The notes under the pieces: generated by a model
The model's input: only the letters and a program-made list of their open reading frames with translations
The model's database searches: none
Told to the model about the DNA's origin: nothing
Translations under genes and position numbers: made by a program
Assembly: GCA_964016885.1 (NCBI GenBank)
Contig: OZ024742.1
Location: forward strand, 305,970,001 to 306,034,000
Reading direction: 5' to 3'
Length of the DNA stretch: 64,000 nt
Origin: Eledone cirrhosa
Lineage: Eukaryota
In this document: positions 1 through 48,139 of the stretch, piece by piece
How the letters are laid out: the number at the start of each line of letters is the position of its first letter
Numbering within the stretch: the stretch's first letter is position 1

Positions 1-3000
1 CAAGCAGTGAAAAGGATGGAAAAACCGTCCTTCCTCTACGAGAAGTAAGGTAAGTGGTCTTTCCCATCTTTTCCACTCCTTTTCAACATGACCTCACTCA
101 GAATAGGCAGCATAAATGCGCGTGGCTTGGGGTCGTCATGGAAGCAGGGCCACCTGCTCAATGACCTCAGGTCACTAAACATAGATGTAGTGGCCATCAG
201 CGAGACCAGAATCTCCGAAGCACAGGCTTTCGCACCGATCTTCGGCGGCTACGATGTGTACGCATCTCCCAGCCGTCCGGGATCGGGGGGAGGAGTTGCT
301 GTGCTTTTTCGGAGAGGTTTGGATCTTGCCATACGGGCCATCTTCCTGGACCCAGAAGGTAAGTTTGTGGTGCTGGACATGACCAGCGGAGACGGGCAAG
401 CTTTCAGGTTAGTGGCCGTCTATGCCCCGACAGGAGCAGGCGGCCTGATTTCTTCCGGCGTCTGGAGACCTTTCTTGGAACGTCCCGCTCTTTAGTGTTA
501 GTGGGCGACTGGAACGGGATCTTAGATGCACGCTGGGATTGTGTGGGATTAGTGGATAGGGAAGGAGGGTGCAAGAGTCTCACCAACCTGCTCAGACGTT
601 TTGAACTGTCTGACAGGTACCGAATGGATTTCCCGAATGTACCAATGTGGACTTGGACAAATCGCATAGGGTCATCCAGATCATATCTAGATAGAGTATT
701 TTGTAGGGAAATAGATAGGTCTAGCATAGGCTGTCCACAATTCAAGATAGTCAGCTACACGGACCACAAATTCGTGATCTGTGTGCTTGACTTAGATAGG
801 CTTCATAGACGAGGACCCGGCTACTGGAAGCTATAACGCGTCCTTACCAGCGCGCAAGGCCTACAGAGACCGGATTAGCGAACAAGTTAAGCGGGCGTTG
901 ACGGGGGCCATCGTCAACAACAAGTGGTGGTTTGCTCTGAAAAGAGCAATTAGAATAGAGTCCATTAGGTTTAGTAAGACTTTAGCAATAGAGAAAAATA
1001 GAGCAGAGGGAGAATTAGTTAGAAAATTAGATGAGGCGCTTAGCAAAGGCATCGCGACCGACGTACTTGCGGCGAAATTGACCCTTGACCAATTCTTCAA
1101 TGCAAAGCACGAAGGCTGCGTTGTCAGAGCTAGGGTGCGTGCTCTCAGACACGAGGGGACGAAAGCCGTTCAAAGGGCCCGAGTGGCGGAGGTGCGTCGT
1201 GGCAACAAAGCCACGATCCGGTCTTTGGTGGACCACGACGGGCGCATGCTACTCGATTCCGGGCAAATGTGTGAAGCTTTTCAGCGACACTTCGCTCAAC
1301 TGTTCGGGGGCAGTGGCGGGCCGGATCGAGGGATGGACTTTAATGTCTACCTCGACGGACTGCCGCGGCTTTCGGCCACTGAGGCGGAGTGTTGCGAAAA
1401 GCCGATAACAACCGCTGAAGTACGGGATGCAATGACTAGTTGCACAAGGGCTAAATCGCCTGGTTTGGATGGTCTGCCCTATGAATTTACGTACAAATGC
1501 CAAACTTGTTCGGAGGCCTCTTGGCGGACGTCTACTGCAACTGGCAACAGAACGGGAGAATTCCCAGCTCTGTGAGCCGAGGAGCGGTGGCGCTGCTGAG
1601 AAAGGATCCGAACAAGGGGGATAACATAGATAATTTTAGGCCCATAACTCTGCTAAACACAGAGTTCAAGATTTTGCCCAAGGTGCTAGCAAAGAGGTTG
1701 GCGCTTGTCGTTGGTGGTCTGGTGGGAGAGGCACAGACATGCGCCATTCCCGACAGATCCATCCACGACAACCTCCACCTCATGCGATACATCGTAGAGA
1801 GGGTAGCTAGGGAACCTGGCACGGGTGGGTCTTTGATCAATTTAGATCAGTCGAAAGCCTTCGATAGGGTCGACCATCGTTACCTAGCGGCAGTCCTGAG
1901 GGCGGCTGGCTTTGGGCCCGTCTTCAGAGGCTGGATCGCTGCCATGCACAGCGACATCTGCTCTGTAGTGAGAGTCAACGGTCACCTTTCGAAACCGTTC
2001 AACATCATGCGCTCGGTACGCCAAGGATGCCCCATCTCGTCCCTATTGTACGTATTGACTCTCGAGCCATTACTGCACAAACTGGAGACGTTGAGGGGGG
2101 TCCCGCGCGAGCTGGGATGCGGAAGATCCGTGTCAGCATATGCCGACGATGTCACCGTAGTGGTGTCGAACGCCAAACACATCGAGGCGATCGGCACTAC
2201 ACTAAGAGAATACGAAGCGGTGACAGGAGCAATGATCAACCAGGAAAAGTCAGTGGGCCTGCAGCTTGGCACCTGGAGAGGCAGGTCCATGCCGTCCAAC
2301 AGCGTCGTCGGGCGCTGGACGGACGGACCGGTTAAATTGCTAGGGGTCTGGTTCGGTCCAGACCTCCAGACGGACAAAAACTGGGATGGGGTGACGAGCA
2401 GGGTGGCTTCTCTCACCCAGAAATGGGCCGAGAGGAAGCTATCCCTGAAAGGTCGAGCGGAGGTGGCGAATGCGTACATCGCATCCGTCATCTACTACCG
2501 CCTGACCGTCTTACCTTGTCCTAAGCCCCGCCTGACTGCGCTGGAGCGTTTGCTCTTTCGCTTCTTGTGGAAGGGACGCGCTCCGATGGTCAGGCGGTCC
2601 ATCTGCTGTCAACACCCGCTACGTGGAGGGCTGGGCATGCCGTGGCTGATGATGCGCAGACACGCGCTCAGGCTACGACATCTCCACCTCTTCCTCGACG
2701 GTGATCAGGTGTGGTCGCCGTTTGCTAGACACGTTTTTCCCCAGCTCGTCTCCTTGACGGAGCTGCAGTCCTGGGTCAAGCGAAGACGGAGAGGGAGCGC
2801 TTGGAGACTGGAATGTCTTCAGGCGCTCACAGTGGAAACTCCACCTTGGCGTTTTATAGGGGATTAGTGGAGGGGAAGAGCGACGACGTACTTGGAGAAA
2901 CTCTAGGCGTCGACGAAAATCAACTAGCCAATCTCTTCGGAAGGACTTTCGGGCCGGGGCCTATGGACAACTTCCAGAAATCCCTGGCCTGGCAGTGCTA

Positions 3001-3721
3001 CCGGGGTGCTTTGCCAGTTCGGGATAAACTTTACAGGCATGGATGTGCCGTCAGCCGGGCATGTCCGAGATGCGCACAGGGCGACGAAACCGTCCTGCAC
3101 GCACTCGTCCAGTGCCCGAGCATTGCTGACTTGTGGGTTTATGTCGAACACCTGCTGTCACGTGTAGGACGGATCCAGCTATCAGCTGAGTCCATCGTGA
3201 GGATTGCCCCGCCCCCTTCCTTTAGCCGGGAAGGGCAGGCAGTTTTTATCTGTCTGGTGGCCATGGCGAAAGAGATAGTATGGTGGACACGTTTGAAAGG
3301 GCTGAAGACGAGCAGTTACCTCTTCGGTGATGCCCTGATTAACTTTTTCAAACTTCATCTGAAAAGAAAAATCAGGGTAGAGAGGGAAGTGCTCTCTTCC
3401 CAGCATTTTGTTGAAAGATGGGTGAGAGAAGCAAGTATGGCCCGAATGAATGGGCCTTCCCTGAGTATGTGTCTGTAAATTAAAGGTGGAAAACTGGGAG
3501 AGGGCACTTGCCCTGGTGGTCAGGGCCACTGTGGTCTTTTAATGGGCTTTCTCCACAAATGTCCCTAGGAAGTCTCCCCCCTATTGGGGAATTTTTCTTT
3601 GTTATTTTATTTCATCCTCTTTTTTTTTTACACGCAGAAATGCCCATTTGTACCGTCCTGTATTGTCCTGTAGTGTCCTTAATGTCTACTTTATGTAAAC
3701 CCTTGTGGTTAATAAAGAAAA

Positions 3722-3767
<46 letters not shown>
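1..3767 (+). mobile_element. Tx1/L1-clade non-LTR retrotransposon, copy 1 (subfamily A; 5' part outside window)
   Basis: End of ORF1, APE-RT ORF2, 3'UTR, AATAAA at 3711, (TTA)n tail about 3723-3767. Confidence 0.92.
88..3478 (+). pseudogene. Frameshifted ORF2 (APE + RT + C-terminal Zn finger) of copy 1
   Basis: Motifs across ORF fragments: SINARGL, ISETR, VYAP, GDWN, TDHK, GPGYWKL, PGLDG, RPITLLN, RQGCP, YADD, CPRC..ETVLHALVQC. Confidence 0.92.
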
Positions 3768-3982
3768 GGTTGGTGAAGCCACGCTTCTTATCGCCTCCAG
3801 TCTTTTTCAACGTTTTACCTCTTTTTCATCCGTTCTAAACCTTTTATTCAAGTTTTAAATTTGATAAAAGTTTAGAAGAAATGACCCACCTAATACAGGG
3901 GTTCACTAGTAAATAATACGGCACCCCTTTACGGAGTGTCGTATTCGTATTTTTGGAAAAATATTTTTTAAAAAATTTCAAA

Positions 3983-6008
3983 ATGGATAACACATAAAAG
4001 AGAGAGAGCGCTGTCAGACAACACAGAGAGAGGGAGACTTTATCATCATGTCAACAAGACAGCGTTCCAGCGGAGGTAAATATAAACGAAAATATTACAA
4101 AGGAAAAAAAGATTGTTACAGATTTAAAATTAACAAATATTTCTAACACAAACAACACTAACAATAACACCAACAACATCACCAACAACAACACCAAAAA
4201 TAACAGTGGTAAAGTCGAGAACGACAATAACAAAAATAACAGCGGTAAGGTCGAGAACGACAATAACAAAAATAACAGCGGTAAGGTCGAGAACGACAAT
4301 AACAATGACAATAACAACAGCCACAACAATAATAGTAGGAACAGTATCAACAAAAACAACAATAATAACAACAGCCACAATAACAGTAACAGCAGCAACA
4401 GTATAAACGAAAACAACACCAACAACTGTACCAGCGAAAAGAACAACAATGACACCGATACCTGTAATAGCGACCTCAGCACCACCAGTAAGACCAGTAG
4501 CGGCAGCAATAGTGGTGCTGCTGAAAAAGGGACCACTTCTTTTGCAGGTGTCGCCCGAAATATCGAAACAGTGTTAGTCACAGAGGAGGAGATGGCAGTC
4601 GCAAGGGCCATGGTGACAAGAAGCGCAAATAGAGTTTCCCTGAAACCTCCACCCGATTTTTTCAAGGACCAGCAGCTACGAACGGTGACTTACTGCACCG
4701 TAAGCAAAATCTCACATCGAATGGAGAGAGCCACGGAGGCTCAAATCCAAAAGGCCTTGGGGTGTGTCTGGGCACGCAAAACCCACATCACCCGAGGCAG
4801 AAAGTCCGCCACAGTAGACGTACTTTTCGCCACCCCCCAGGAAGAAAAGTCTCACTCTTTGGAAACCCTAAAGAGTGAGGAGTTAGTCTTGGTGCCCTCC
4901 TACTGCGGGCAGAAAATTGTGAGGGTCAAAGTGACCCAGGTTCCACCCGACGTACCCATACCTTGGCTGCCCGCGTCTGTCCTTGCTGGAATTGAGAACA
5001 GGGCGACCATGCTGCAAGTAGAAAAAATAGGGAGAGAGAACTGGTCAGGTATAGGCATGCAAATGCTTATACAAACTGACCAGGAATGTATCGAGGCTAT
5101 CCCCGATATCATAGACTTTGAGGAAGGACTCCAACTCCTTATAAGTTAGAAGGAAGACGGCCAAAATGTTATCTCTGTGGGTCGAAAGGTCACCTCAGGG
5201 CCTTTTGCCCGCAGAAGACACCGAAGAGGGCCCCTCTCCTTCCAATACCTGGTCCGCTGCTACCAAGAGCAGGACAGGCAACAAACGAAGAAGCCCCTTC
5301 CACGGTGAGTAGAAGGGTAACGTCCATAGCACCCGTACCAAGGCCACGGATAACTAAAGCAGCAACACCAATAGCTACATTTGAAATAGCTACACCAGCA
5401 ACAACATTGCCGAAGAGGGCTCCACTACCACCACCAACAGCCGTGGAGCACATACCCCTCCCAGACGCCACAGAATCCGACATGGAGTTTGAGGCGGGAG
5501 TGACGTGGCAAACAGTCTGCCACAAAAAAGAAAAAAGAAAAAAAAACTAAGGTTCACCCTCCAAAAGTCGAGGCATACAAAGAGGGGTAAAGGCAGCAAA
5601 GAAACTTGCAGCAACACCACCACAAACACCAACAAAGCAAACACAACAAGACACACACACCAAACAGCAACAAGAAGAAAACGGCAACAAAATCACCCCT
5701 CCCCCCAAAAAGTACAAAGCCATAAACATAGCAAAAAAAGAACTCATAAAATATATAAAGCAGCACACAGACATCACGGAAAAAAATTACTACACCCCAC
5801 CAAGACCAAGAACTCTCCCGTCAAACATAAGCATCATCGAAATCTCATTAGAACAATACAAACCTTTAAAACAAAAATTCCCCAACGCAGTTGGAGACTT
5901 CAGAAGACGATTACCAAGAGGATATACACTGACATCCTCTTGGAAACACCCATGACCAGCGAAAGGGACGGTTCTACTGTCCCTTCACCACACGAACAAG
6001 GTAAGTGA
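3983..6008 (+). pseudogene. Disrupted ORF1 of copy 2 (Asn-rich N-terminus, folded core, CCHC knuckle, Pro/Thr-rich tail)
   Basis: ATG 3983 is in frame with ORF 4571-5149, with an early TAA at 3995. Knuckle RPKCYLCGSKGHLRAFC near 5158-5208. Homologous to ORF 13932-15140. Confidence 0.8.
4195..4302 (+). repeat. 36-bp tandem repeat x3 inside ORF1 (KNNSGKVENDNN)
   Basis: caaaaataacag(t/c)ggtaa(a/g)gtcgagaacgacaataa at 4195, 4231 and 4267. Confidence 0.9.
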
Positions 6009-6040
6009 CCCTTTCTCATTTGCCCCGTTTCTCATCCAAC

Positions 6041-9000
6041 ATGGCTGTACTCAGAATAGGAAGTATAAATGCACGTGGCCTGGGGTCATCTTGGAAGCAG
6101 GGTCACCTGCTCAATGACCTCAGGTCACTAAACATAGATGTGGTGGCCATCAGTGAAACCAGAATCTCCGAGGCACGGGCTTTCGCACCGATCTTCGGCG
6201 GCTACGATGTATACGCATCTCCCAGCCGTCCAGGATCGGGGGAGGGGTTGCCGTCCTTTTTCGGAGAGGCTTGGATCTCGCGATACGGTCCATCTTCCTG
6301 GACCCAGAAGGTAAGTCGGTGGTGCTGGACGTGACCGGCAGCGAAGGCAATGCTTTCAGGCTAGTAGCCGTCTACGCCCCAACAGGGGCAGGACGGCCAG
6401 ATTTCTTGAGACGTCTAGAGACCTTTCTTGGAACGTCCCGCTCTTTAGTGTTAGTGAGCGACTGGAACGGTATCTTGGATGCATGCTGGGATCGTGTGGG
6501 GCTAGTGGATAGGGGAGGAGGGTGCAAGAGCCTCACCAACCTGCTCAGACGTTTTGAACTGTCTGACAAGTATCGACTGGATCACCCGAATGTGCCAATA
6601 TGGACATGGACAAACCGCATCGGGTCATCCAGATCGTATCTAGATAGGGTATTCTGCAGGGAACTTGATAAGGCTTGTATAAGTTGTCCACAATTTAAAA
6701 TAGTCAACTACACAGACCTCAAATTTGTGATCTGTGAGATCGACATAGACAGACTTCATAGACAAGGGCCTGGTTACTGGAAGCTGAACGCGTCACCCGG
6801 CGCGCAAGGCCTACAGAGACCGGATTAGCGTATTAGTTAAGCGGGCGTTGACGGGAGCGGTCGTCAACAACAGGTGGTGGTTCGCCCTGAAAAGGGCAAC
6901 CGACGTGCTTGCGGCGAGATTGGCACTCGACCAATTCTTCAACGCAAAACACGAAGGCTGCGTTGTCAGAGCTAGAGCGCGTGCTCTGAAACACGAGGGG
7001 ACAAAAGCCGTCCAATGGGTCCGGGTGGCAGAGGCGCGACGTGGCAATAAAGCCACAATTCGGTCTTTGTCTGACCAAAACGGGTACGTGATGCTCGAAC
7101 CCGAGCGGATGTGTGAAGCTTTTCAGCAGCACTTTGCTGAACTGTTCGGGATCGGCGGCGGCCCGGATCGGGACATGGACTTCAGTGCATACCTCGACGG
7201 ACTGCCCCGGCTCTCGACGACCGCAGCACAGTGTTACGAAAAGCCAATAACAGCCGGTGAAATACGGGAAGCGATGGCTAACTGCGCAAGAGGTAAATCG
7301 CCAGGTTTAGATGGTCTGCCCTACGAGCTTTATGCATTTATTCCAGACTTGTTCTGTGACCTCTTGGCATACGTCTACTGCAACTGGAAGCAGAACGGGA
7401 GCATTCCCAGTTTTGTGAGCCGGGGAGCAGTGGCGCTGCTGAGAAAAGACCCGAACAAGGGGGATGTTATTGATAATTTCAGGCCCATAACCCTGCTAAA
7501 CGCAGAGTTCAAGATTTTGGCCAAGGTGTTAGCAACGAGGTTGGCGCTTCTCGTCAAGGGTCTGGTGGGAGAGGCGCAGACATGCGCCATCCAGGACAGA
7601 TCCATATACGACTATCTCCACCTCATGCGTTACATCATAGAGAGGGTGGTTAAGAAACCTGGCAAGGGTGGGCCCCTGATCAACTTGGATCAATCCAAAG
7701 CATTCGGTACCTGGTGGTGGTGCTCGAGGCAGCCGGTTTCGGGCCCGTTTTCAGGCATTGGATCTCAGCAATGTACAGCGACATCTGCTCAGTTGTGAGG
7801 GTGAACGGTCACCTGTCGCAGCCGTTCAGCATCATGCTTTCAGTCCGCCAGGGTTGTCCCCTCTCGTCCCTCTTGTACGTATTGGCTCTCGAGCCGTTAC
7901 TGCACAAACTGGGGGCGATGAGGGGCGTCCCACGCGAACTAGCATGCGGGAAATCCAAGTCGGCTTACGCTGACGACGTCACCGTGGTGGTGTCGAGCAC
8001 CAGACACGTCCAGATGCTCGGCACCGCTCTCAAGGAATACGAAACGGTGACAGGAGCAAAGGTAAACCAGGAAAGGTCGGTGGGCTTGCAGCTAGGCACC
8101 TGGAAAGGCAAGTCCATGCCGTCCGACAGCGTCGTGGGGCGTTGGACGGACGGACCGGTTAAATTGCTCGGGGTCTGGTTCGGACCGGACCTCCAGATGG
8201 AGAAACACTGGAACGAGGTGACGAGCAGGGTGGCCTCCCTCACCCAGAAATTGGCTGAGAAGAAGCTGTCCCTGAAAGGCCGGGCGGAAGTGGCGAATGC
8301 GTACATCGCATCCGTCATCTGCTACCGCCTCACCGTCGTCCCTTGTTCCAGCCCAACTCTCACCAAAATAGAGCGCCTCCTCTTCTACTTTTTGTGGAAA
8401 GGACGCGCTCCCATGGTCAGACGATCCATCTGCTGTCAACACCCGTTGCGTGGAGGACTGGGCATGCTATGGCTGATGATGCGCAAACATGCGCTGAGGC
8501 TGCGACATCTCTGGTGCTTCCTTGATGGTGAACGGGTGTGGTCGCCGTTCGCCAGGCACATTTTCCAACAGCTCGTCTCCTTGACGGAGCTGCAGTCCTG
8601 GGTCAGAAAAAGACCGAGGGATAGCGCTTGGAAACTGGAATGTTTCCAGGCGCTCACTGCCCTCTACCAGTTGGGCACCAGTAGCGGTGGAACATCCACC
8701 TCGGCGTTCTATAGAGGACTAGTGGAGGGGAAGCGCGACGACGTTCTCGGAGAGATCCTGGGCGTCGAAGAAGATCAGCTGCTTGCTCTCTTCCGGAGAA
8801 CTTTCAGCCCGGGGCCTATGGATAACTTCCAAAAATCCCTGGCCTGGCAGTGCTACCGGGGAGCGCTGCCGGTTCGAGATAATCTCTACAGGCACGGAAG
8901 TGCCGTCAACCGAGCCTGTCCGAGATGCGCGCATAGCGACGAAACCGTTGTGCACGCACTCGTTCAGTGTCCGAACATTGCTGACTTGTGGAGCTATGTA

Positions 9001-9333
9001 GAACAGTTGCTGTCACGTGTGGGACTGATCTGGTTGTCGACTGAGTCCATTGTGCAGATGGTCTCGCCGTCTTCCATTGAGGAGAAAGGGCAGACGGTTT
9101 TCATCTGCCTGGTGGCCATGGCGAAAGAGATTGTGTGGTGGACAAGGTTAAAAGGATTAAAGACAAACACTTTCCTCTTCGGCGAATCCCTGATTAACTT
9201 TTTCAAGTTTCACTTGAAGAGGAAAATCAGGGTGGAGAGGCAAGTGCTGCTTTCTAGCAAGTTTGTTGAAAGTTGGGTGAATGCAGCGAGAATGGTCCGA
9301 GTGAACGGGACCACTCTGAATATACGTCTGTAG
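6041..9333 (+). pseudogene. Frameshifted ORF2 (APE-RT-ZnF) of copy 2
   Basis: ORF fragments 6005-6334, 6271-6828, 6848-7798 and 7714-9333 carry APE motifs, RQGCP, YADD and CPRC..H..C. Confidence 0.92.
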
Positions 9334-9649
9334 TTTGAGAGATAGAAAAATTGAGAGAGGGCGCTTGCCCTGGTAGTCAGGGTGACGGTGGTCTTTTGTG
9401 TGGTTTTCGCCACGAGTAACCCTCGGAGGTTTCCCCCCTATTGGGGAATTTTTCATTGTTTCAATTTTCATTTTTTTGTTTATATATATATATGTTTTAT
9501 GTCTTTTTTTCTTTTCTTATATAAATAATAAAAATATTTACACGCACAAAACCCACATCGTACCGTCCTGTTCCGTCTGTGATGTTTTTCTTGATGTCAG
9601 CCCTTGTGGCCAATAAAGAAATCATTATTATTATTATTATTGTTATTAC

Positions 9650-11952: not shown

Positions 11953-13125
11953 CAGTTGTATTTATCTTGCTTTATGTTCATACGAGTTATCACCAAGTCA
12001 AAACCAGTGACCTCAAGAGACAACAAGGTCCGCCATGTTCAAGAAAGAAGATACATATTCACACATGCATCTTTAGTGTTTAGACTTGTGATGTACTTAT
12101 ATTGACAGAATCTTCCTTAGTATAGGCAGTTCCCATTAGTACTATCTTTTGTATTTCTCCTATACGCGGGTTTCCTGGGATTTGCGATAAGTAATCATTA
12201 GACCCCTTAGGTATCATTCCCAGAGCGCCTACAACCACTGGTATTGTTTTAGTTCTCAATTTCCACATTTTTCCAATTTCTATCTCCAGGTCCCTATACT
12301 TGCTCAATTTTTCAAATGTTTTTATAGATACATTCTTGTCTATTGGAACAGACATATCAATTAGCAGGCATACCCTCTTTTGAAAGTCTTTCAATATTAT
12401 ATCAGGTCTGTTTGCATCTATTTTTCAGTCTGTTTGGATGCTAAAGTTCCACAAGATTAAGATGTGATCTTTTTCAAGTATGGGAGATGGTTGATGCTCC
12501 CACCAATTCTTTTGATGGGGCAGGTCAAAATGCTTACACATTATCCAATGTATGTATTGTGCAGCTCTGTCATGCCTGTTTAGGTATTCGGTTGGAGCTA
12601 TAGGACTGCACATTGAAATTATATGGTCAATGGTCTCTGGTTGTTTTTTGCATACACGGCATAATGGGCTGCACCCATTTTTTATTATGTTGGCTTGGTA
12701 ATTTTTTGTTGGCAGACACTGATCTTGTGCTGATATAATCAGTCCTTCAGTCTCCGATTTCAGTCCAGAGGATGCCAAGCACTGATGGGTTAAAGTTTTG
12801 TCAACATCAGAATTGTTAGCTCGCTCTGGGTATTTTCCATACAGAGGCTTTTCTTGCCATTTCTTAGCCAGTTTCTGTAGCAGTTCTTTCTTTGCAGTTA
12901 CTTTTACCTGCTTTGCTTTTTCTGTGTTTTCCATTTCAGCAGTAAATGGGACTTCTGAAATTTGTAGTCCATTACTGTATCTTTGTGCATCTTTTGTAAT
13001 GGAATATGATCTTTTGATGCTTTCGTGTTTCAAAACTAGTTTGATCATCCAATCATGTGATTCCCTTAGATATGTAGATAATCCAATTGTTTCAGTTTTC
13101 AACGCAATGTCTAACTGGATTAACC
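11953..13125 (-). mobile_element. R4/Dong-like family B, copy 1 (5'-truncated; CCHC + RLE + 3'UTR)
   Basis: CRVC..ETIDHIISMC, RHD, LIDMSVP, EKLSKY, PVVVGALG. 3'UTR matches about 17187-17330. Both flanks are (TTA)n. Confidence 0.88.
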
Positions 13126-13367: not shown

Positions 13368-15466
13368 ATGGCTACGAAAAAGAATTTGCATAGGTCACTC
13401 CCACTCATTCCGTCTTCTTCTTCCTCAATCGTCACTACAGCAGAGAGAAGATTGTCTCTCTCCCTCCCTTCTTTAAATGTGTCTCTCTCCCTCCCTTCTC
13501 TTTCGCAAGCGACGAAAGAAAAGAAAAGTCTCGTGCAAAGCGTGCAAGGTTTCTCCACGACGACGACGACAGCGACGAAACAGGTGTGCGGGAAATACGA
13601 AAACCCAGTTCATTCGTCTGACGTCAGGAATAATAGCAGTAGCAGCCGTAATAACAACAGCAACAGTGACAATGAAAACAACAGTAGCAGCCGCAACAGC
13701 ATCACCAGCAGCATAAACAACAACAGCATTAGCAGCAGCAACACCAACAACAACCACAGCAACAGCGGCGGAGGAGGTAGTCGTAGTACCTGCAGCAACA
13801 ACAAAAGTAACAGCAGCTCTGACGACAACAACAACAACAGCAGCAAAGAAAAACCAATCTCATTTGCAGGTATTGCGAAAAACTTGTAAACAATCCTCAT
13901 AACAAATGAGGAATTAGAGGAAGCGAAGAAGATGGTGACAAAGACTGGACACCGAGCAATCTGCAAGGCAGCGGAAACATTTTTCGAAACCCAACAGCAC
14001 TGTACGGTCACGTACCGAACAGTAAGTACAAAATCCCGTAGGGTGGAAAGAGCCACAGAGGCTCAAATACAAAAAGCCTTGGGGTTTGTGTGGCAGCGGA
14101 AAACGCACATCACCCGAGGAAAAAAATATGCCACCGTAGACGTACTTTTTGCCACACCCCAGGAGGCAAAGGCCCAATCCGTAGTGACCCTAAGGAGCGA
14201 GGAAATGGTGTTGGTGCCCTCCTACTGCGGGCAAAAAATTGTGAGGTTCAAACTGACCCACGTCCCCCCCGGGATGGCCCCTTCTTGGCTGGCCGCGTCT
14301 GTCCTCGTCGGAATCGAGGACAAAACAACTGTACTGCAAGTACAGAAAAAAGTAAGAGAAGATTGGGTCGGCACCTCCATTGAGATGCTAATCCAAACCA
14401 ACCAGGAGTGCATCGAAGCTATCCCGGATGTGATAGACTTCGATAACGGCACTCAACTGCCCATAAGTGTTGAGGGAAAACGCCCGAAATGCTTTCGCTG
14501 TGGATCGAAGACTCACCTCAGGGCCTTCTGCAACGAGAAGACCCTGAGAAAGGAGAAAACCACCCTCCTTCCGAAACCGGCTCCACGGCTACCAGCAACA
14601 GGACAAGCGGCAACCAGGAACGATAGGTCCGTGGCACCCATACCCACGCCACGGAAATCAAAAACAGCAACAGCAGTGGAAATATTAACAACAACAACAG
14701 CAATACCAAATGCAGCTGCAACAGAGACTCCAGTGCAAACATCACCAACAACAACAAGTGAAAGAGTGGAGCTGGTACCCCTCCCCGACCTCACAGAATC
14801 AGACATGGAGTGTGAGGTGGGAGAGAGATGGCAAAAGGTCGTAAGAAGCCACAAACGCAGAAGCAGCGCATCGTTGCCTTTGAAAAGGGAGGAAAGAAAT
14901 GAGAAAAGGGTAAAGTCTACTGCAAAGAGACCCACAGCAGCAACACCACCAACACCATCACCACCCACACTAGCACCACCATCACCACCGGCGACAACCC
15001 CACCGCCAACAACACCTTCAACACCACCACCACAAACACCAACATCGCAAACACAACAACAAAACACACACACCCAGCAACAACGACAAGAAAATAGCAG
15101 AACCACACCCACACCCAGAAAAACAAATGCACGGAAATAAATACACACAACAAGAAACTAATGACTTACATAATTGAACACAGACATTTCACAACACGAC
15201 TACATAATACCAGCACCAATCAAAACGCCAACTAACGTAAGACTGCTAAAAATAGCACAGAACAATACACAAACATTAAAACGAAATTCCCCAACGCAGT
15301 TGGTGATTTCAGGGACCTAGGAGGAACTATCAATCGAAGAGTATATTCAGACATTCTCTTAGAAGAGCCGACGACCAGCCGAAGGGACGATTCAACGGTC
15401 CCTTCACCAGACGATCAAGTGAAAAGGGATGTAAAAACCATCCCTCCTCTACCAAAAGTACGGTAA
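13368..15466 (+). pseudogene. ORF1 of copy 3 (in-frame stop at 13887, distal disruptions)
   Basis: MATKKN start, N/S-rich tract, conserved core, RPKCFRCGSKTHLRAFC knuckle, Pro/Thr-rich tail. Confidence 0.82.
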
Positions 15467-15501
15467 GTGGTCTTTCCCATCTTTTCCACTCTATTTTAAA
15501 C

Positions 15502-16625: not shown

Positions 16626-16674
<49 letters not shown>

Positions 16675-16680
16675 TTTGTT

Positions 16681-21498: not shown

Positions 21499-21532
<34 letters not shown>

Positions 21533-24500
21533 GGTCTGTTCGACAGTCCTTTTAGCTCGCTCCCAGTAAGTCGCTTTATTTACCTGTTATAATTATATGT
21601 TGTTAAATTTTTCTTGTTGTGTAAGGGATATAAGCCCTTGGACTTTGCCATGTGAAAGGGAAAGTATAATATTTGGGCCTTTTGGCCCAAATATTTGAAC
21701 AATATTTGAACATTTTCTTTTGAAAATTTAAATAAAAACAAAAAGAACATGGCTGAGCCACGCACCCCAGCAATATGTCTGCTGTCGTGTGACAAGGGCG
21801 TAAAAGTTGAGAGGAGGGTTAGTGAAATTCATACAACAAACACCACCACAAACAACGTGAGCAAAGACAACAACACTGAGAACACTAATTTTAAAAACAT
21901 TACCACACCAAATACAACAATAACAGCGTCAACCAAAATACAGACAACAGAAAAAAATGACAACAAATGCAACAACGATATTAACACCACTAACAAGAAA
22001 ATAAACAACGATAACACCAACAGCAACAATACAAATTGCACCGAAAACAACAACAACGGTGGCACCAAAAACACAACCAACTACAACAGTGATAACAGCA
22101 ACACCAACACCGTTTGTAGCAGTAGCAACAGCAACAGCACCAACAACAAGACCAGTAGCAGCAGTAGCGGTAGCAATAATGGTGCCGCTGAAAAAGAGGC
22201 CTCTTCATTCACAGGTGTGGCCCGAAATATAGATACAGTGTTAGCCATGGAGGAGGAGATGGCAGTCGCAAGAAACGACAATAGAGTTTCCCTGAAACGT
22301 TCACCAGATTTCTTCAAAGACCAGCAGCTGCGCACGGTGACTTACCGCACCGTAAGCAAAATTTCATATAGGGTGGAGAGAGCCACGGAGGCTCAAATCC
22401 AAAAGGCCTTGGGGTGAGTCTGGGCGCGCAAAACCCACATCACCCGAGGCAATAAGTATGCCACAGAACACATACTTTTCGCAAGAGGTGAAGTCTCACT
22501 CTTTGGAAACCCTAAAGAGTGAGGAGATAGTCTTGGTACCCTCCTACTGCGGGCAGAAAAGTTTGAGGGTCAAAGTGACCCAGGTTCAGCCAGCTGTGCC
22601 CATACCTTGGCTGGCCGCATCTGTACTTGCTGGATCGAAGAGAAGACCACCATACTGCAAATACAGAGTATGGGAAGAGAGAACTTGTCAGGAATAGGTA
22701 TGAAAATGCTAATACAAACAGACCAGGTGTGCATCAAGGCCATCCCAGACATTATAGACCTCGAGGAATGACTCCAACTCCCTATAAGCGTGGAAGGAAT
22801 GTGCCCAAAGTGCTATCTCTGTGGGCAGAAGGGTCACCTCAGACCTTCTGCCTGCAGAAGACAGCCAAGAAGAGGGCCCGCTCATTCCGACGCCTGAGCC
22901 GCTGCTACCAAGAGCAGGGCAGGCAACAGAGGCAGAAGACCCTTCCATGGTGAGTAGTAGGGCAACGTCCGTGGCACCCATACCAAGGCCACGGACAACT
23001 AAAGCCATAGTTGCAGTAGCTACACCGACGGCAAAATCGCCGGAGCGGGCTCCACTACCACCACCAACAGCACTGGAGCTTATATCCCTCCCAGACGCCA
23101 CGGAATCCGACATGGAGTATGAGGCGGGAGGGAAGTGGCAAACTGTCTGCTTCAACGTCCCAATGCGAAAGCAAACAAAGAGGGGGAAAGTCTGCAAGGA
23201 GACTTGCAGCAACACAACCACCATCACTATCACCACCACAAGCATCACCACCAACAACAACCACACCCCCACCAGCATCACCAAAAACACCAACATCGGA
23301 AACACAACAAAACACACACACCCAAAAGCAACAACAAGAAAACAGCAACAAAATCTCCGCTCCCCCCCAAAAGTACACAGCCATAAACATGGCAAATAAA
23401 GAACTCTTACAACATATAAAGCAGCACACAGACATCACAGAAAAACCTACTACACTCACCAACACCAAGAACTCTCCTGAAAAACATAAACATAATTGAA
23501 ATCAAAATAGAACATTACAAACTGTTAAAAGAAAAATTCCTCAACGCAGTTGGAGACTTCAGAGGATATACACCGACATCTTGGAAACACCCATGACCAG
23601 CCAAAGGGACCGTTCTACTGTCCCTTCACCACACGATCAAGGTAAGTGATACTTTTTCACTTACCCCGTTTCTCATCCAATATGGCCGTACTTAGAATAG
23701 GCCGTATAAATGTACGTGGCCTGGAAGCAAGGTCACCTTCTCAACGTCCTCGGGTCACTTAACATAGAAGTGGTGGCCATCAGCGAGACCAGAATCTCCG
23801 AAGCACGACACTTCGCATCTCCCAGTCGTCTAGGATCGAGGGGAGGGGTTGCCGTGCTTTTTTCGGAGAGGCTTGGATCTCGCCATACGCCCCAACTTCC
23901 TGGACGCAGAAGGTAAATCGGTGGTGCTGGATGTGACCGGCAGCGACGGTAGCCGTCTACGCCCCAACAGAGACAGGACGGCCAAATTAAGTCAGACGTC
24001 TAGAGACCTTTCTTGGAACGTGCCGCAGTTTAGTGTTAGTGGGCGACCGGAACTGTATCTTAGATGCACACTGGGATTATGTGGGGCTAGTTGACAGGGA
24101 AGTAGGGTGTAAAAGCCCCAACAACCTGCTCAGACGTTTTGAACTGTCTGACAAGTATAGACTGGATTATCCGAATGTGCCAATGTGGATATGGGCAAAC
24201 TGCATCGGGTCATCCAGATTGTATTTAGATAGGGTATTATGTAAGGAAACAGATAATGCTAGTGTAGGTTGTCCACAATTTAATGTAGTCGACTACACGG
24301 ACCACAAATTTGTGATCTGCGAAATTGACTTAGATAGACTCCATAGGCAAGGGCCCGGCTACTGCAAGCTGAACGCGTCTTCCCGGCGCGCAAAGCTTAC
24401 GGAGACCAGATTAACGAATTAGTTAAGCGTGTGTTGGCGGGTGCGATCCTCAACAACAGGTGGTGGTTTATCCTGAAAAGGGCTATTAGAGTAGAATCTA

Positions 24501-26475
24501 TAAGGTTTAGCAAAGGACTAGTGATAGAGGAAAATAGAGGTAGAAGGAGAGTTAGTTAGAATGCTAGAAGAGGCGTTTAGGGCAGGCATCGCAACAGCAC
24601 TTTGCTCAATTGTTCGGGAGCGGCGGCAGGCTGGATCGGAGTATGGATTTCGGTGCATAACTCGACGGACTGCCGCGCAGTGATGCGACCATCGGTACCT
24701 GGCTGCGGTCCTTGAGGCGGCCGGCTTCGGGCCCGTTTTTAGAGGCTGGATCGCTGCGATGCACAGCGTTATCTGCTCGATTGTGAGGGTGAATGGTCAC
24801 CTGTTTCAGCTTTCAGCTTCATGCGCTTGTTCCGCCTGGGTTGTCCCCTATCGTCCTTCTTGTACGTACTGGCCCTAGAGCCGTTACTGCACAAATTGGA
24901 GACGATGAGGGGTGTCCCACGCGAATTGGGACACGGGAGATCCGTATCAGTTTACACCGACGACGTCACCGTGGTGGTGTCGGGCACCAAAGACGTCCAG
25001 ATGCGCGGCACCGCTCTCCAAGGAATGCGAAGCGGGAACAGGAGCAAAGATAAACCAGGAAAAGTCGGTGGGCTTGCAATCGGCACCTGGAGACGCAAGC
25101 CCATACCGTCCGACAGCATCGTGGGGAGCTGGACGGAAGGACCGCTTAAATTGCTCGGGATCTGGTTCGGTCCGGACCTCCAGATGGTGAAAAACTGGAG
25201 AGAGGTGACGAGCAGGGTGGTCTCTCTCATCCAGAAATGGTTGGAGAGGAGGCTGTCTCTGAAAGGTCGGGCGGATGTGGCGAATGCATACATAGCGTCC
25301 GTCAACTGCTACCGCCTGACCGTCGTACCTTGCCTCCGCCCAACTCTGACCAAAATGGAGCGCTTTCTCTTCCGCTTTTTGTGGAAGGGACGTGCTCCCA
25401 TGGTCAGACGATCCATTTGATGTCAACACCCGTTACCTGGAGGACTAGGTATGCCGTGGATGATGATGCGCTGAGGCTGCGACATCTCTGGTGCTTCCTT
25501 GACGGTGAACAGGTGTGGTCGCCGTTTGCCATACGCGCTTTTCCCCAGATCGTCTCCTTGACGGAGCTGCTGTCCTGGATCAGGAAAAGACCGAGGGATA
25601 GCGCTTGGAAGCTGGAATGTCTCCAAGCGCTCACTACCCTCTACAAGCTGGGCACTAGTATCGGTGGAACATCCACCTCGGCGTTCTATAGAGGGCTAGT
25701 CGAGGGAAAGAGCGACGACGTTCTCGGGGAGACCCTGGTCCTCGAAGACGATCCGCTGTTCGCTCTCTTCAAGAGAACTTTCAGACAGGGGCCTATGGGC
25801 AACTTCCAGAAATCCCTCGTTCAGTGCCCGAGGATTGCTGACTTGTGGAGCTATGTCGAACAGCTGCTGTCGCGTGTAAGACGGATCCGGTTATCGACTG
25901 AGTCCATTGTGCAGATAGCCACGCCACCCTCCTGTACAGAGGGGGATGAGCAGGCAGTTTTCATCTGCCTGGTGGCCTTGGCGAAAGAGATTGTGTGGTG
26001 GACTAGTTTGAAAGGGTTGAAGACGGACACTTTCCTCTTCGGCCAATCCCTGATTAACTTTTTCAAGTTTCACTTGAAGAGGAAAATTAGGGTGGAGAGG
26101 CAAGTGCTGTCTTCTAGTAAGTTTGTTGAAAGGTGGGTGAAAGTGGTGAGTCTGGTCCAAGTGAACGGGCCTGCTCTGAGTATACGCCTGTAGACTGAGG
26201 AGTGGGAAAACTGAGAGAAGGCGCTTGTCCTGGTGGTCAGGGTAGCCGTGGCCTTTTTGTATGGTTTTCGCTACGAGTAACCCTTGGAGGTTTCCCCCTT
26301 TTTGGGGAATTTTTATTGTTTTAATTTTTTGGATTTCTAGCCCAATTCTGCTATATCTCGTTTACACGACCAAAACACCCTTTGTATCGTCCTGTACTGT
26401 TTTGAGCCGTTTCTAATGTTTTTCTTCGGGTTAGCCCTTGTGGCCAATAAAGAAACCATTATTATTATTATTATT
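21533..26475 (+). mobile_element. Tx1/L1-clade element, copy 4 (subfamily B'), degraded with internal deletions
   Basis: Begins after (TTA)n. ORF1 about 21749-23649, ORF2 about 23682-26193 (YTDD), deletions near 24597 and 24680. Ends CCCTTGTGGCCAATAAAG + (TTA)n. Confidence 0.9.
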
Positions 26476-38607: not shown

Positions 38608-41600
38608 ATATGGGTAAAAGGACAGTGAGGGTACGCATTCCCAGCATCCCACCAGGAATGAACATATGGTGGCTGCTGGGATGTGTAATCGAGGAGGGGA
38701 CAGACACTGCCCTCCTAGACATCAAAAGGACAGAGAGAGAGGACTGGTCCGGAATGGATTTAGAGATTCTTCTCCAAATGAAACCGGAGGATATGAATAA
38801 CATCCCGGATTTTGCCCGCCTGCAGGATGGGACAGCAATCCAACTAATGATTGACGGAAGAAGGCCACGCTGCTTCGTCTGCGGGGAAGCAACGCATCTT
38901 CAAGCCTTCTGCCCTCAGCGCAAAAATGCAGGGGGTCGCAAACCTCCTTTGTTGCCAACGCCAGTGTCAGCACGGAAAGCTGCACCACCACCACCACCAC
39001 CAAAAACAACATCAACAAAAACACCAACATCAAAAGCAGCCGGATCACCACCAACACCAAAACGAAAAGGAGAAAACGAGGAAAGCACTCCCACTCCCCC
39101 TACCACCCCCAATTATACACATAGACAAAACAATAAACGCACAAACAGACACAGTGATACTCACAGACACAGACGCTTTGTCTTCCAGCAGCGAAGCTGA
39201 AGGAAAACCCAAAAGTGCAAAAAAAAACAGAGAAAACTCACAAAAAAAAAAAAAGCCCCAACAAAACACAAAAACTCACACAACAAAAAATACAGACACC
39301 ACTAACGCAAACACTTCCCCAATAACATCATCACCAACAGCAACATCGACACCACCACCACAATCCCCGAAACGCAAACAACCTAAACAAACACAAGTAC
39401 AAATAAACACACAAATACCTGAAATTGCAGACACCACACCTACAACAAACATAGACATACCCGAAACAAAACCACCAAATCCATCGCCACCACCTTCACC
39501 AAAACGAAAACAAATAAAACCACACCAACAAAATGTTAAAAACTTCGTGCTTGTCAGAAGGGCTAACGATAAACTGATGGCCCTCTTAGCGCGAAGCGAG
39601 GACATTCAAACAGAGGGGGAGATTTTTGAAATGAGCACATTTTGCGTGCCAGAAGATTTGCTTCTGGTCCGAATGTCACTCAATTCCTTCAAAGAAATTC
39701 GAGAGAGCTTTCCTCAAGACGTGAGAATCCCGAATGTTAAACCCACATCAAGACTTTTAAAGGGGTTCCCAAAAGAAACCCCACCAACCATGGAGGTCGA
39801 ACCACCCGACCTTCACAAGACCCGGAAGGTAAGTAAACCTTCCCTCTCTCTCTCTTAGCTTACCAATATGGCCATATTAAGAGTAGGAAGTTTAAATGTT
39901 CGCGGCCTGGGGTCACCCTGGAAGCAGGCTCGCCTGCTCAACGACCTCCGGTCGCTGGAAATGGATGTGATTGCCGTAAGCGAGACCAGAATTTCCGATA
40001 CGCGCGCACTAGCCCCCATTTTCGACGACTATCAGATCTTCGCATCTGTTAGCAGGCCGGGAATGGGGGGGGGGCAGTGCTGTTTAGGAAAGGACTGGAT
40101 CTCGAGGTAAGGTCGATCTTCCGGGACCCGGACGGTAAGTTGGTGGTCTTGGATGTGAGCAGTAGCGAAGGTGGTGCCTTTAGACTGCTGGCCGTCTATG
40201 CCCCTACAGGGGCCGGACGACCTGACTTCTTTAGGCTCCTGGAGACCTTTCTGGGTACGTCTCGCCCTTTACTGTTAGCGGGGGACTGGAATGGCATCTT
40301 AGACGCACGCTGGGATTGTGTGGGAGTAACCGATAGGAGCGGGGCGTGCAAAAGCCTCAAACACCTACTCAGCCAGTTCCAACTGTCTGACAGGTATCGA
40401 CTAGATTTCCCCAATGTGCCAGTATGGACATGGACCAACCGAATGGGGTCATCTAGATCGTATATAGACAGGATCTTCATTAGGAAAATAGATAGAAATA
40501 GTGTGGGCTGTCCACTTTTTAAAACGGTCGCCTATTCAGATCACAAATTTGTGATCTGTACGGTCGACCTAAATAAAACGCGTAGGTTAGGACCGGGTTA
40601 CTGAAAGCTGAACATGTCATTTCCGGCACGTAAGGCTTACAGGGACCGAGTCAACAATTTAGTTAAGCAAAAGTTGACAGGGGGGGATCATCAACAACAG
40701 ATGGTGGGTGGCTCTCAAAAGAGAGATTAGAGTAACTTCGATAGAGTCCAGCAAAGAACTAGCGTTAGTGAAAAATAGAAAGGAGTGGGAGCTGGTAGAT
40801 AAGTTAGACGAGGCTATTTGTAGTGGCATCGCAACTGACGTGCTAGCGGAGAGAATGGCATTACACGATTTCTTCAATGCCAAACACGAAGGTTGCATTG
40901 TCAGAGCTAAGGCGCATGCGCTGAGAAACGAGGGAACTAAAGCTGTTCGATGGGCCCGCGTGGCGGAGGCGCAGCGTGGTAATAAAACCACAATTCGGTC
41001 TTTGGCGGACCGAGACGGACACTGCATGAGGCGCAAGTCACCCGATTTGGATGGCCTGCCCCACGAGCTTTACGTAAATATGCCAGACTTGTTCTCCGAA
41101 CTCCTCCAAGCACTCTACTGCAACTAGCAGCAGAATGGGAGTATTCCCAGTTCTGTGAGCAGGGGAGTGATGACGCTGATAAGGAAAGACGAGAACAAGA
41201 GGGATACATTAGACAACTTCAGGCCCATAACTCTGCTCAACACGGAGTTTAAGATTTTGCCCAAGGTGTTAGCAAAGAGATTGGCGCTTGTCGTCGAGGA
41301 TTTGGTTGGGAAGGTGCAAACTTGCGCAATTCCAGCCAGGTCCATACACGACAATCTCCACCTCATGCGATACATCATAGAGAGGGTAGGGTGTAAACCT
41401 GGCTTCGGTGGGGCACTGATCAATTGAGATCAATCGAAAGCATTCGATAGGGTCGACCATCGGTATCTGGAGTTTGTCCTCAAAGCAGCTGGCTTAGGCC
41501 CTGTCTTTAGAAGCTGAAATCGTTGCAATGCACAGCGGCACACGCTCGGTGGTCAAGGTTAATGGCCACCTCTCGGAACCATTTCGGATCTCCCGATAGG

Positions 41601-43388
41601 TCCGTCAAGGGTGCCCTCTCTCTTCCCTTCTGTACGTATTGACTCTCGAGCCTTTACTGCGGAAGCTGGAGCTGTTGCAGGGCATCCCGCTCGAACCAGG
41701 ACGTGGAAAGGCGGTGTCGGTTTATGCGGACGACATCACGGTGATGGTGTCGAACACCTCAGAAATCGAGGTGGTCGGCACCTTATTGAAGGAATATGAA
41801 AGGTTGACAGGAGCCAAACTTAACCCGGAAAAGTCGGTGGGCTTGCAGCTCGGAACCTGGAGAGGCAAGCCCATGCCGTCCAACAGCGTCGTGGGGCGCT
41901 GGACGGACGGACCGGTAAAGTTGCTCGAGGTTTGGTTCGGACCAGACCTCCAGGTGGAAAAGAATTGAGACGAGGTAACGAGCAGAGTAGCCAGTCTCAC
42001 CCAAAAATGGGCTGGGAGGAAGCTATCACTGAAAGGTCGCGCGGAGGTGGCAAATGCCTACATCGCGTCCGTCATCTACTACCGCCTAACCGTCGTGCCT
42101 TGCCCCCGTCCGCGCCTCGTCAAGTTGGAATGGCTCCTCTTCAAATTCTTGTGGAGGGGACAAGTTCCTTTGGTGAGGCGGTCCATCTGCTGCCAGCACC
42201 CTCTACGCAGAGGGCTGGGCATGCCGTGGCTAATGATGCGCAGACATGCGTTGAGGCTGCGACATCTCCAGATATTCTGCCTCAATGGTGAACAGGTGTG
42301 GTCGCCGTTTATCAGACGGGCCTTTCCGCAGCTCATTTCTTTAATTGAGCTTCAGTTCTGAGTCAAGAAGAGACCGAGACTAGGTGACTGGCACCTGGAA
42401 TGTTGCCAGGCACTGACTGCCCTCTACCAAGCGGGCAATGCGATCAGTGGAACTTCCACTCTCGAGTTCTATAGAGGATTAGTGGTGGGCAAGTGCGATG
42501 TCTCACTCGGAGAAGCTTTGGGCCTCGACGAAGTCGAACTGACCAGTCTGTACCGGAGGACTTTTGAGCCGGGGATGATGGACAATTTCCAGAAATCCCT
42601 CGCTTGGCAGTGCTACCGGGGGGCACTGCCGGTTCGGAAGTGCTGTCAGACGGACCTGCCCAAGATGCGCACAGAACGACGAAACCGTTTTGCACGCACT
42701 TGTCCAATGTCCGTGCATTACTGACTTGTGGAGTTATGTCGAACAGCTACTGTCGCGTGTGGAACGAATCCGGCTTTCAGCCGAATCCATAGTCAAGATC
42801 GATCCGCCACCTTCCTTAGGTCCGGAAGAGCAGGAAATTTTCCTCTGTCTGGTGGCAGTTGCGAAAGAGATTATATGGTGGACCAGATTGAAAGGACTAA
42901 AGACAGACACTTTTCTCTTCGGCCAATCCCTCATCAACTTCTTCAAGTTTCACCTGGAAAGGAGGGTGAGGGTGGAGAGAGAAGTGCTGCCCCCCCCCCC
43001 CCCAGTACATTTGCTAAAAGGTGGGTGAATGTGGCGAGAATGGCTCCTGTGAATGGGCCTACTCTGAGCATGCGCCTATAGCTGGCTAACTTGAGGAGAG
43101 GGGTGCTCTCGCTGGGTGCCCTAGAAGCGCAGGGTGGTTCAGGATTGGTGGGGTACCCGAATCACCCCAGGGTCGTCCACCCCTGTCGGGGAATGTATTT
43201 GGTTATATTTATGCATAGTTTATTTTATATTTTTATATTTTCATTGTTAAATTAGTCTTGCCATTGTGCACTTTTACTCGACCTTATTGTAAACCCCCAC
43301 TGTCCCTGTCTTTGTATTGTCCCCTACATGTCGGCCCTTGTGGCTAATAAATGAAATCATTATTATTATTATTATCATTATTATTATT
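38608..43388 (+). mobile_element. Tx1/L1-clade element, copy 6 (divergent subfamily C; 5'-truncated in ORF1)
   Basis: Starts after (TTA)n. RPRCFVCGEATHLQAFC knuckle, ORF1 stop 39858, ORF2 39868-43081 (YADD) with stops and frameshifts. Ends CCCTTGTGGCTAATAAA + (TTA)n. Confidence 0.9.
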
Positions 43389-48135: not shown

Positions 48136-48139
48136 TATC

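Follow-up and report, generated by a model that had tools for sequence, protein, structure and literature searches.

Long interspersed nuclear elements (LINEs) are usually thought to avoid splicing, and the control of the ratio between the proteins of their two open reading frames, ORF1 and ORF2, is an old open question. In retroviruses, the major splice donor is associated with U1-dependent control of poly(A) sites and with RNA structure, as in foamy viruses, human immunodeficiency virus 1 and the negative regulator of splicing of Rous sarcoma virus. What appears to be the nearest precedent for the case described here is the Arabidopsis element EVD, a Ty1/Copia element with long terminal repeats (LTR), one ORF, a real short intron and a terminator defined by RNA blots and 3' rapid amplification of cDNA ends; a U1-type donor immediately behind its GAG is reported both to allow the formation of a GAG-only RNA and to suppress the premature termination of full-length transcripts (Oberlin et al., 2017; PMC5580714). 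Human L1 has functional donor and acceptor sites, and a study on it describes spliced RNAs that keep ORF2 and leave intron-less copies (spliced integrated retrotransposed elements, SpIREs), the splice sites being regarded as harmful by-products giving dead-end copies (Larson et al., 2018; PMC5860796). The present work deals with the ORF1/ORF2 junction of a LINE lineage in a 64,000-nt stretch of the Eledone cirrhosa genome (GenBank assembly GCA_964016885.1, contig OZ024742.1, positions 305,970,001 to 306,034,000, forward strand), further called the window and numbered from its first letter. The octamer AG/GTAAGT at the end of ORF1 (the slash marks the putative cleavage position) is tentatively read as a U1-type 5' splice site which may be masked by a conserved, predicted long-range helix.

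The window contains six plus-strand copies of this one lineage, belonging to the subfamilies A (copies 1 and 3), B (copies 2, 4 and 6) and C (copy 5). The motif is located at their junctions as follows.

49..55, plus strand: GGTAAGT of copy 1 (A1), with the ORF1 stop TAA (51-53) inside the motif
6000..6006, plus strand: GGTAAGT of copy 2 (B), with the ORF1 stop TGA (6006-6008) overlapping its last base
15462..15468, plus strand: GGTAAGT of copy 3 (A2), preceded by ACG, with the ORF1 stop TAA at 15464-15466
23641..23647, plus strand: GGTAAGT of copy 4 (older B type), with the ORF1 stop TGA at 23647-23649
39828..39834, plus strand: GGTAAGT of copy 5 (C), where ORF1 reads through to TAG at 39856-39858
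45216..45222, plus strand: GGTAAGT of copy 6 (older B type), with the ORF1 stop TGA at 45222-45224

A preliminary description of the same DNA had placed GTAAGT upstream of the ORF2 ATG at all six junctions (ATGs at 88, 6041, 15502, 23682, 39868 and 45257), with G/GT at distances of 38, 40, 39, 40, 39 and 40 nt, and both the positions and the spacings were reproduced. The 38-40 nt spacing, presented there as fixed, is valid for A, B and C, while it is 45 nt in family D and 51-55 nt in family F. The number of GGTAAGT occurrences in the window was unremarkable (14 against 7.97 +/- 2.98 expected; 4 of 100 shuffles reached 14), the non-random aspect being position and not count. When the six junctions were aligned, no long block other than this 7-mer was invariant between the upstream hairpin and the ATG.

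The junction segments were 99-100% identical to dozens of other copies in the 3.0 Gb genome, indicating young copies; within-subfamily identity is therefore uninformative, and only the comparison between subfamilies counts. It included A1, A2, B, B2, C, D and F, all from the same genome and taken from stretches beside the window and from genome searches, with B2 and two further A copies widening the set. A tree built from the initial 720 nt of ORF2 had the branching order F - A - (B, B2, (C, D)); the families constitute a single, fairly tight clade, and their endonuclease domains are 64-72% identical. AG/GTAAGT was kept in A1, B, B2, C and D, while A2 had CG/GTAAGT. Over 11 representatives of the seven subfamilies the core GGTAA was invariant, including GT at +1/+2 in 11 of 11, and A at -2 was present in all but A2. 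Family C had GAG/GTAAGT in 34 of 35 loci, so the AAG reported earlier before the motif in C is private to copy 5. The majority form in family D was AAAAG/GTAAGT (GTAAGT in 25 and GGTAAGT in 21 of 27 copies). In the older family F, all 26 copies read AG/GTAA followed by A or T (GTAAAT, GTAAAG or GTAATT), with no G at +5 in any of them. Conservation of the motif thus held across subfamilies of this genome, with F keeping only CAG/GTAA. Measured on the coding sequence next to the motif, the family-level branches that keep GGTAAGT add up to approximately 0.84 substitutions per site, and the estimated chance of eight sites remaining unchanged at that constrained rate is exp(-6.7), or about 1e-3. 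Over the same branches the spacer and the ORF1 tail became unalignable between family groups, and persistence of the motif against this background shows that the constraint is real.

The motif is read in three registers. The ORF1 of family A ends with AGG TAA or CGG TAA (in 14 of 18 copies no upstream frame is longer), while that of family B ends with GGT AAG TGA (the stop is present in 30 of 30 copies and terminates the longest frame in 28). In family C ORF1 continues through GTA AGT to a TAG 28 nt further on (stop in 30 of 30 copies, longest frame in 29). Family D ends with AGG TAA inside the motif, and so do 10 of 30 copies of family F, including those with the longest frames. In B and C, consequently, the motif is not the stop codon. 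The three registers of A, B and C had already been noticed and were confirmed on further genome copies; together with the persistence of the motif over the above distance they bear out the proposal that the constraint acts on nucleotides rather than on protein. The two ORFs share a frame in C but not in A, B and D. ORF2 has its own ATG in every family, leaving no common frameshift or readthrough logic. In all families the ORF1 stop is at 0-28 nt from the motif, and the AUG of ORF2 follows it by 9-50 nt. Subfamily C also contains a 30-nt segment GTAAGT...TTAG (39829-39858) between the in-frame ORFs, the segment ending with the ORF1 stop and being separated from the ATG by three codons.

Several other donor-like sequences were present within the elements. 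A, B and C have a second GGTAAGT within ORF2, 230-270 nt from its start (358, 6310, 40134 and 45486; copy 3 has GGTAAGC there), and this occurrence was rejected as a signal, since it codes for G-K of a conserved DPEGK, so that protein probably explains it. At the 5' end, CAGTAAGT was found, as described before, about 33 nt from the start of copies 4 and 6 (near 21566 and at 43421); the copy starting at 3768 (copy 2) reads CCAGTCTTT at the equivalent place, so that the youngest B copies have not retained this site. In its N-terminal ORF1 region (4200-4310), copy 2 includes three 36-nt tandem units, each with GGTAAGG, in a very A-rich, Asn-rich coding stretch. Finally, locus L283 (G000:C2:206695489-206698512) combines a D-type ORF1 end and hairpin with GTTAGT, another spacer and a divergent ORF2 start, and may represent a further subfamily or a recombinant.

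The genome gave 42 matches over the Rfam cut-off to genes of the small nuclear RNA (snRNA) U1. The six loci that were read all begin with ATACTTACCTGG, and AGGUAAGU can form eight contiguous Watson-Crick pairs with U1 nucleotides 3-10. The motif thus has both the U1 complementarity and the GT at +1/+2 of a U1-type 5' splice site, and the earlier suggestion of a site for the U1 ribonucleoprotein fits the 5' end of the host's own U1. To our knowledge, only U1 reads AGGUAAGU. Family F is without the match at +5/+6, yet has C at -3 in 22 of 26 copies, where it can pair with U1 G11; a trade-off between exon-side and intron-side pairing is characteristic of real donors. The U1 genes themselves are arranged in tandem arrays with a period of approximately 2674 bp (G000:C2:180973544-180995099 and contig C1128).

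A predicted helix, missed in the preliminary description, joins the motif, the spacer and the AUG of ORF2 to the sequence that directly follows the ORF2 stop. The junction strand, taken from 45 nt before the motif to 6 nt beyond the ATG, was scored against all downstream windows of 70 nt. The best partner was situated at the end of ORF2 in 11 of 13 elements (A1, A2, three B, B2, two C and three D), with duplex free energies (dG) of -49 to -74 kcal/mol and z-scores of -2.7 to -5.4, and in C and D the next-best windows were weaker by 9-25 kcal/mol. Of the remaining two elements, both F copies, one gave a weak result and one failed. When the partner strand was shuffled, none of 300 shuffles reached the real energy in six of seven families (z -4.8 to -10.9; F, z -1.5). 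Own partners were superior to foreign ones (-82.5 vs -59.2 in C and -81.6 vs -64.4 in D), and the two strands of the modelled helix are thus co-evolving in C and D. As predicted, the helix includes about 45 nt upstream of the motif (inside ORF1, in the region of a local hairpin, HP1), the motif, the pyrimidine-rich spacer and the ORF2 AUG, the latter lying opposite the ORF2 stop; the partner is located approximately 3.4 kb from the junction. The strands identified in the window are the following.

4..93, plus strand: junction strand (J) of copy 1, with the HP1 region, motif, spacer and ORF2 ATG (88-90)
3470..3533, plus strand: partner strand (T) of copy 1, from the ORF2 stop (TAA, 3476-3478), with CACTTGCC opposite the motif; dG -58.9, best of 356 windows
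5955..6046, plus strand: junction strand (J) of copy 2, with the ORF2 ATG at 6041
9332..9400, plus strand: partner strand (T) of copy 2, starting in the ORF2 stop TAG (9331-9333), with CGCTTGCC opposite the motif; dG -61.2, best of 349 windows
26192..26261, plus strand: partner strand (T) of copy 4, only 2551 nt after the motif because of the internal deletion in this copy; dG -49.5, z -2.8
43092..43155, plus strand: partner strand (T) of copy 5 (C); dG -61.0, z -4.2

The predicted partner of the motif differs between families (CACUUGCC in A, CGCUUGCC in B and GCACUUGC in D), with U+2 always opposite a G, and in family C only GGU(A) of the motif is paired, yet GGTAAGT is kept. Since the helix covaries, the motif partner varies and C keeps a largely unpaired motif, the motif must be under a sequence-specific constraint beyond the helix. 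The pyrimidine-rich spacer, noted earlier as always following the motif, is accounted for as one strand of a purine/pyrimidine helix.

We infer the function of the motif from its sequence and from the modelled duplexes. A closed helix would keep U1 off, so that the full-length bicistronic RNA, which is the copied form, stays intact. With the helix open, as it might be in the wake of a ribosome completing ORF1 or during transcription, when the 3' strand has yet to be made, U1 would bind. Bound U1 might then splice out ORF2, resulting in an ORF1-only message, or it might act without splicing, by way of 3'-end processing or nuclear retention. A more far-reaching version, which we regard as doubtful, would make the whole reverse-transcriptase gene a conditionally excisable unit, the choice between full-length template and ORF1-only message being decided by a roughly 50-bp helix competing with U1 binding. 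Such a structure-gated splice switch, if true, is not described for any non-LTR retrotransposon in the literature searched. A consensus donor that is kept whatever the reading frame, inside a co-evolving helix, would make the question of the ORF1/ORF2 ratio directly testable in a new system, and, if the masked-donor reading holds, a non-LTR element would use the host U1 machinery like retroviruses and Ty1/Copia elements do.

In comparison with known systems, the junction resembles that of EVD in having a consensus U1 site just after the first (structural) gene, in an unspliced RNA as the genomic form and in the double role proposed for U1, i.e. splicing and suppression of premature 3' ends (PMC5580714). 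It differs from EVD in having two ORFs, no conserved acceptor or poly(A) hexamer and a predicted helix over the donor; of the features expected for the Ty1/Copia type of short GAG RNA the donor is present, while nearby poly(A) hexamers (in A, D and F) and intron-less copies were not found. In contrast to L1, the donor is conserved across subfamilies. The likeness to retroviruses consists in a U1 site of the genomic RNA which would lie inside an RNA structure and serve more than intron removal, but retroviruses are LTR elements with known acceptors; no LINE case of this kind turned up in the literature searched. A U1 site after the first gene thus has a precedent in EVD, while neither a conserved donor at the ORF1 stop of a LINE nor a helix bracketing ORF2 was found in the titles and abstracts given by full-text literature searches.

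Genomic copies of spliced RNA were searched for by using the exact 21-25 bases before the motif as an anchor and counting the genome copies by what follows it.

Family A: GTAAGT next in 1269 copies; non-G in 13
Family B: GTAAGT next in 489 copies; non-G in 22; G plus non-T in 8
Family C: GTAAGT next in 184 copies; non-G in none
Family D: GTAAGT next in 546 copies; non-G in 38 (30 read); GT plus non-A in 7

Among the 80 deviants read (of 88), all but one continued into the ordinary spacer with point changes or small deletions. The exception, the D copy L241 (G000:C2:135301198-135304219), lacks approximately 130 nt from the motif to ...CCTTAG/G in ORF2, with AGGT at both ends. This deletion is ambiguous, being one G short of a precise GT-AG join, and L241 is either an old spliced copy with a later loss of 1 nt or the result of a slippage deletion. 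Among the 22 B copies with non-G at +1 (L031-L052), nine had TTAAGT on GAACAAG and GATCAAG backgrounds, and these G to T transversions outnumbered transitions. Three sequencing runs of one sample behaved like DNA, with depth rising from 5' to 3' as in a 5'-truncated repeat; none of the 15 joints listed (of 364) started at the motif, and no conclusion was drawn from them.

A number of these and further results count against a masked splice site. Precise joins of ORF1 at G/GT to downstream sequence, which had been named as a check, were not found in the genome copies apart from the ambiguous L241: there were 0 GT-AG joined copies beside 2488 intact junctions of A, B, C and D, and the proposal of a donor that removes ORF2 gained no support from this side. 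Any frequent splice that keeps ORF2, such as a 30-54 nt mini-intron, is thereby ruled out, while the missing joins are weak evidence against a splice removing ORF2, because RNAs without ORF2 may rarely be copied; the absence of joined copies therefore weighs heavily only against ORF2-keeping splices. A conserved acceptor with branch point and pyrimidine tract was not found, and the 3' untranslated region (UTR) candidates differ between subfamilies, in agreement with the preliminary description. The ORF2 stop has the form YTAG in B, B2, C and D, while it is TAA in all three A copies read, and in the alignment the only acceptor-like sites common to A, B and C (+452 and approximately +2810-2840) are both coding sequence. 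Neither AATAAA nor ATTAAA occurs in the initial 1.5 kb of the ORF2 of A, D and F. Since ORF1 of these three families terminates at the TAA contained in the motif, a stop-codon effect could account for part of the conservation there, and F demonstrates that GT at +5/+6 is dispensable. In addition, the duplex energies given above ignore the 3.4-kb distance and competing local folds, such as HP1, which is part of the same strand.

The U1 "telescripting" function, i.e. protection against internal poly(A) signals, was rejected as an explanation for the motif, since the hexamers are not conserved and are absent in A, D and F; the one common to B and C codes for G-N-K.

Among the other explanations, translational coupling is the main rival, and we consider it a possible but less likely alternative to the masked splice site. 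The helix would hide the ORF2 AUG, and a ribosome translating ORF1 would melt the last 45 nt, stop at or near the motif and thereby free the spacer and the AUG for re-initiation, the motif being kept as a ribosome- or factor-related signal at the stop and not for U1. The short distances between ORF1 stop, motif and ORF2 AUG in every family would suit such a mechanism, as would the general retention of this AUG, its predicted pairing opposite the ORF2 stop and the start of the helix about 45 nt upstream of the motif, within ORF1. Similar arrangements include the long-range masking of the downstream start codon in the coat-replicase interaction of phage MS2 and the termination-reinitiation signals represented by the termination upstream ribosomal binding site (TURBS) of caliciviruses and the UAAUG of SART1. 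The likeness to these systems consists in a second-gene start paired with a distant segment and a first-gene stop close by; the differences are a eukaryotic capped mRNA and a partner 3.4 kb downstream instead of within the first gene. For comparison with TURBS, the distance from stop to AUG was 9-50 nt, and the upstream HP1 had z <= -2.6 in 8 of 11 representatives. However, a signal depending on stop context cannot explain an invariant 7-8-mer which occurs in three stop registers and, in C, 28 nt away from the stop. Besides, the helix requires no fixed sequence, as demonstrated by covariation in the remainder of it, and no reader of AGGUAAGU other than U1 is known to us.

HP1 is located in the ORF1 tail, 13-16 nt upstream of the motif. 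In the 8 of 11 representatives mentioned it was more stable than its shuffles, with z from -2.6 to -4.0, while it was weak in F. Its positions in the window are as follows.

12..32, plus strand: HP1 of copy 1, 8 bp with the loop AAAAA, 16 nt upstream of the motif; z -3.25
5963..5985, plus strand: HP1 of copy 2; z -3.97 and -2.64 among the B-type hairpins of this layout
23604-23626, plus strand: HP1 of copy 4, with the same layout as in copy 2
39791..39815, plus strand: HP1 of copy 5, 9 bp with the loop AACCACC; z -3.86
45179-45201, plus strand: HP1 of copy 6, with the same layout as in copy 2, positioned by analogy

The HP1 stem has undergone compensatory changes: within A and B one position is U.G, U-A or C-G and another is A-U vs G-C, and between C and D a G-C becomes an A-U; the protein reading of the hairpin differs between the A/B group and the C/D group. 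RNAalifold run on eight HP1 hairpins gave a weak result, with compensatory change in three of six pairs and with C and D shifted in the alignment, and comparison of the junction with Rfam yielded no family match (best E 0.36). HP1 and the long helix use common bases and are therefore partly alternatives. Two other local folds were discarded: a hairpin of motif and spacer was strong only in B and inconsistent across families, and in 8 of 9 cases pairing between the 5' arm of HP1 and the spacer did not exceed pairing with shuffled spacers. Subfamily A2 (copy 3, 15380-15450; L167) has two hairpin modules in tandem, the first of B type followed by ...caagTGAAAAG and the second of A type; compared with A1 and B, this amounts to an insertion or duplication of 43 nt.

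Compared with translational coupling, routine splicing at a constitutive donor is improbable. It would produce large amounts of an ORF1-only mRNA by removing ORF2 between G/GT and an acceptor close to the stop of ORF2. In its favour are the strength of the donor, the YTAG/ at the ORF2 stop of B, B2, C and D, the Ty1/Copia precedent of EVD (PMC5580714) and a helix that flanks ORF2 precisely and would draw the two ends of this gene together. On the other hand, the donor itself is paired in the predicted helix, and the acceptor is absent in A, the largest family, with TAA in 3 of 3 copies and 1269 intact junctions. Moreover, no join from ORF1 to the sequence after the ORF2 stop occurred among the 65 non-G copies read, the 8 B copies with G plus non-T and the 7 D copies with GT plus non-A.

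Somewhat less probable still is inheritance of an old stop codon, according to which AGG TAA would be the ancestral end of ORF1, B and C would not yet have diverged from it, and the likeness to a donor would be coincidental. This agrees with the role of the TAA as ORF1 stop in A, D and F, with the retention of no more than AGGTAA in F and with the tightness of the clade (64-72% endonuclease-domain identity). It is contradicted by the adjoining spacer and ORF1 tail, which diverged beyond alignment over the same branches, by the GT at +5/+6, kept in A, B, B2, C and D though outside any stop, and by B and C, where the motif codes for only weakly constrained tail residues. Inheritance thus explains the situation in A, D and F in part, but not in B and C.

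A mini-intron GT...YAG of 30-54 nt (52 nt in A, 54 in B, 53 in D, about 51 in F and 30 in C), the splicing of which would fuse ORF1 to ORF2, is very improbable: although the donor is followed by a pyrimidine-rich, AG-free tract ending with YAG and the join would preserve the frame in A, D and C (as well as in F, provided that ORF1 ends with AGG TAA there), it would be out of frame in the young and abundant family B (giving ...Q-E-stop) and would remove the AUG of ORF2, the long-range helix accounts for the pyrimidine tract, and the spliced RNA would still be copyable, yet no copy without the segment was present beside the 2488 intact ones.

The element copies carrying the junctions are distributed in the window as follows.

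1-3767, plus strand: copy 1, subfamily A (A1)
3768-9650, plus strand: copy 2, subfamily B, the sole copy in the window with both ends
~13900-16877, plus strand: copy 3, subfamily A (A2)
~21530-26500, plus strand: copy 4, subfamily B (older B type), with an internal deletion
to ~43383, plus strand: copy 5, subfamily C
~43390-48141, plus strand: copy 6, subfamily B (older B type)

Copy 2 consists of a 5'UTR, ORF1 (ATG at 4049), the junction, a broken ORF2 and a 3'UTR with AATAAA and an (ATT)n tail. An intact ORF2 of 1140 aa from a sister copy had the Pfam domains Exo_endo_phos (8-227), RVT_1 (510-754) and zf-RVT (975-1027), while ORF1 had no Pfam match. The architecture is that of an L1/Tx1-type LINE, with an ORF2 comprising an apurinic/apyrimidinic (AP)-type endonuclease, a reverse transcriptase and a zinc-binding domain and with a separate ORF1; the name "Tx1" itself was given in the preliminary description. 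Known LINEs of the Tx1 group that target microsatellites are Kibi and Koshi, and the present lineage is similar to the group in its ORF2 domains, two ORFs, (ATT)n tail and head-to-tail arrays. "L1-Tx1" families are known from Octopus vulgaris (PMC13282606), and the part of that publication at hand does not mention a junction donor or a long-range helix for them. A metagenome scan gave no relatives from outside this genome, and a protein search gave one match.

The copies end with AATAAA and (ATT)n and begin directly after (ATT)n. Two pairs are arranged head to tail with only (ATT)n between, namely copies 1 and 2 (3727-3768) and copies 5 and 6 (43383-43392), and in the whole genome many A junctions lie about 5.9 kb apart on one strand. 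Such head-to-tail arrays suggest insertion into the tails of earlier copies.

The window also contains a LINE of another kind on the minus strand (9650-11921, with further parts at 12425-13048 and 17770-18423), which is very abundant, with 46550 first-look candidates in the genome and a protein identity of 94-97% between copies. Its domains comprise a reverse transcriptase and a zinc-binding domain, without an N-terminal AP endonuclease upstream of the former, and it was rejected as a distant Tx1 relative, being a different element lacking both this endonuclease and an ORF1/ORF2 junction. Its 3' end and the (ATT)n tail of copy 2 adjoin each other in tail-to-tail orientation, and it may be a Dong/R4-like, microsatellite-targeting element.

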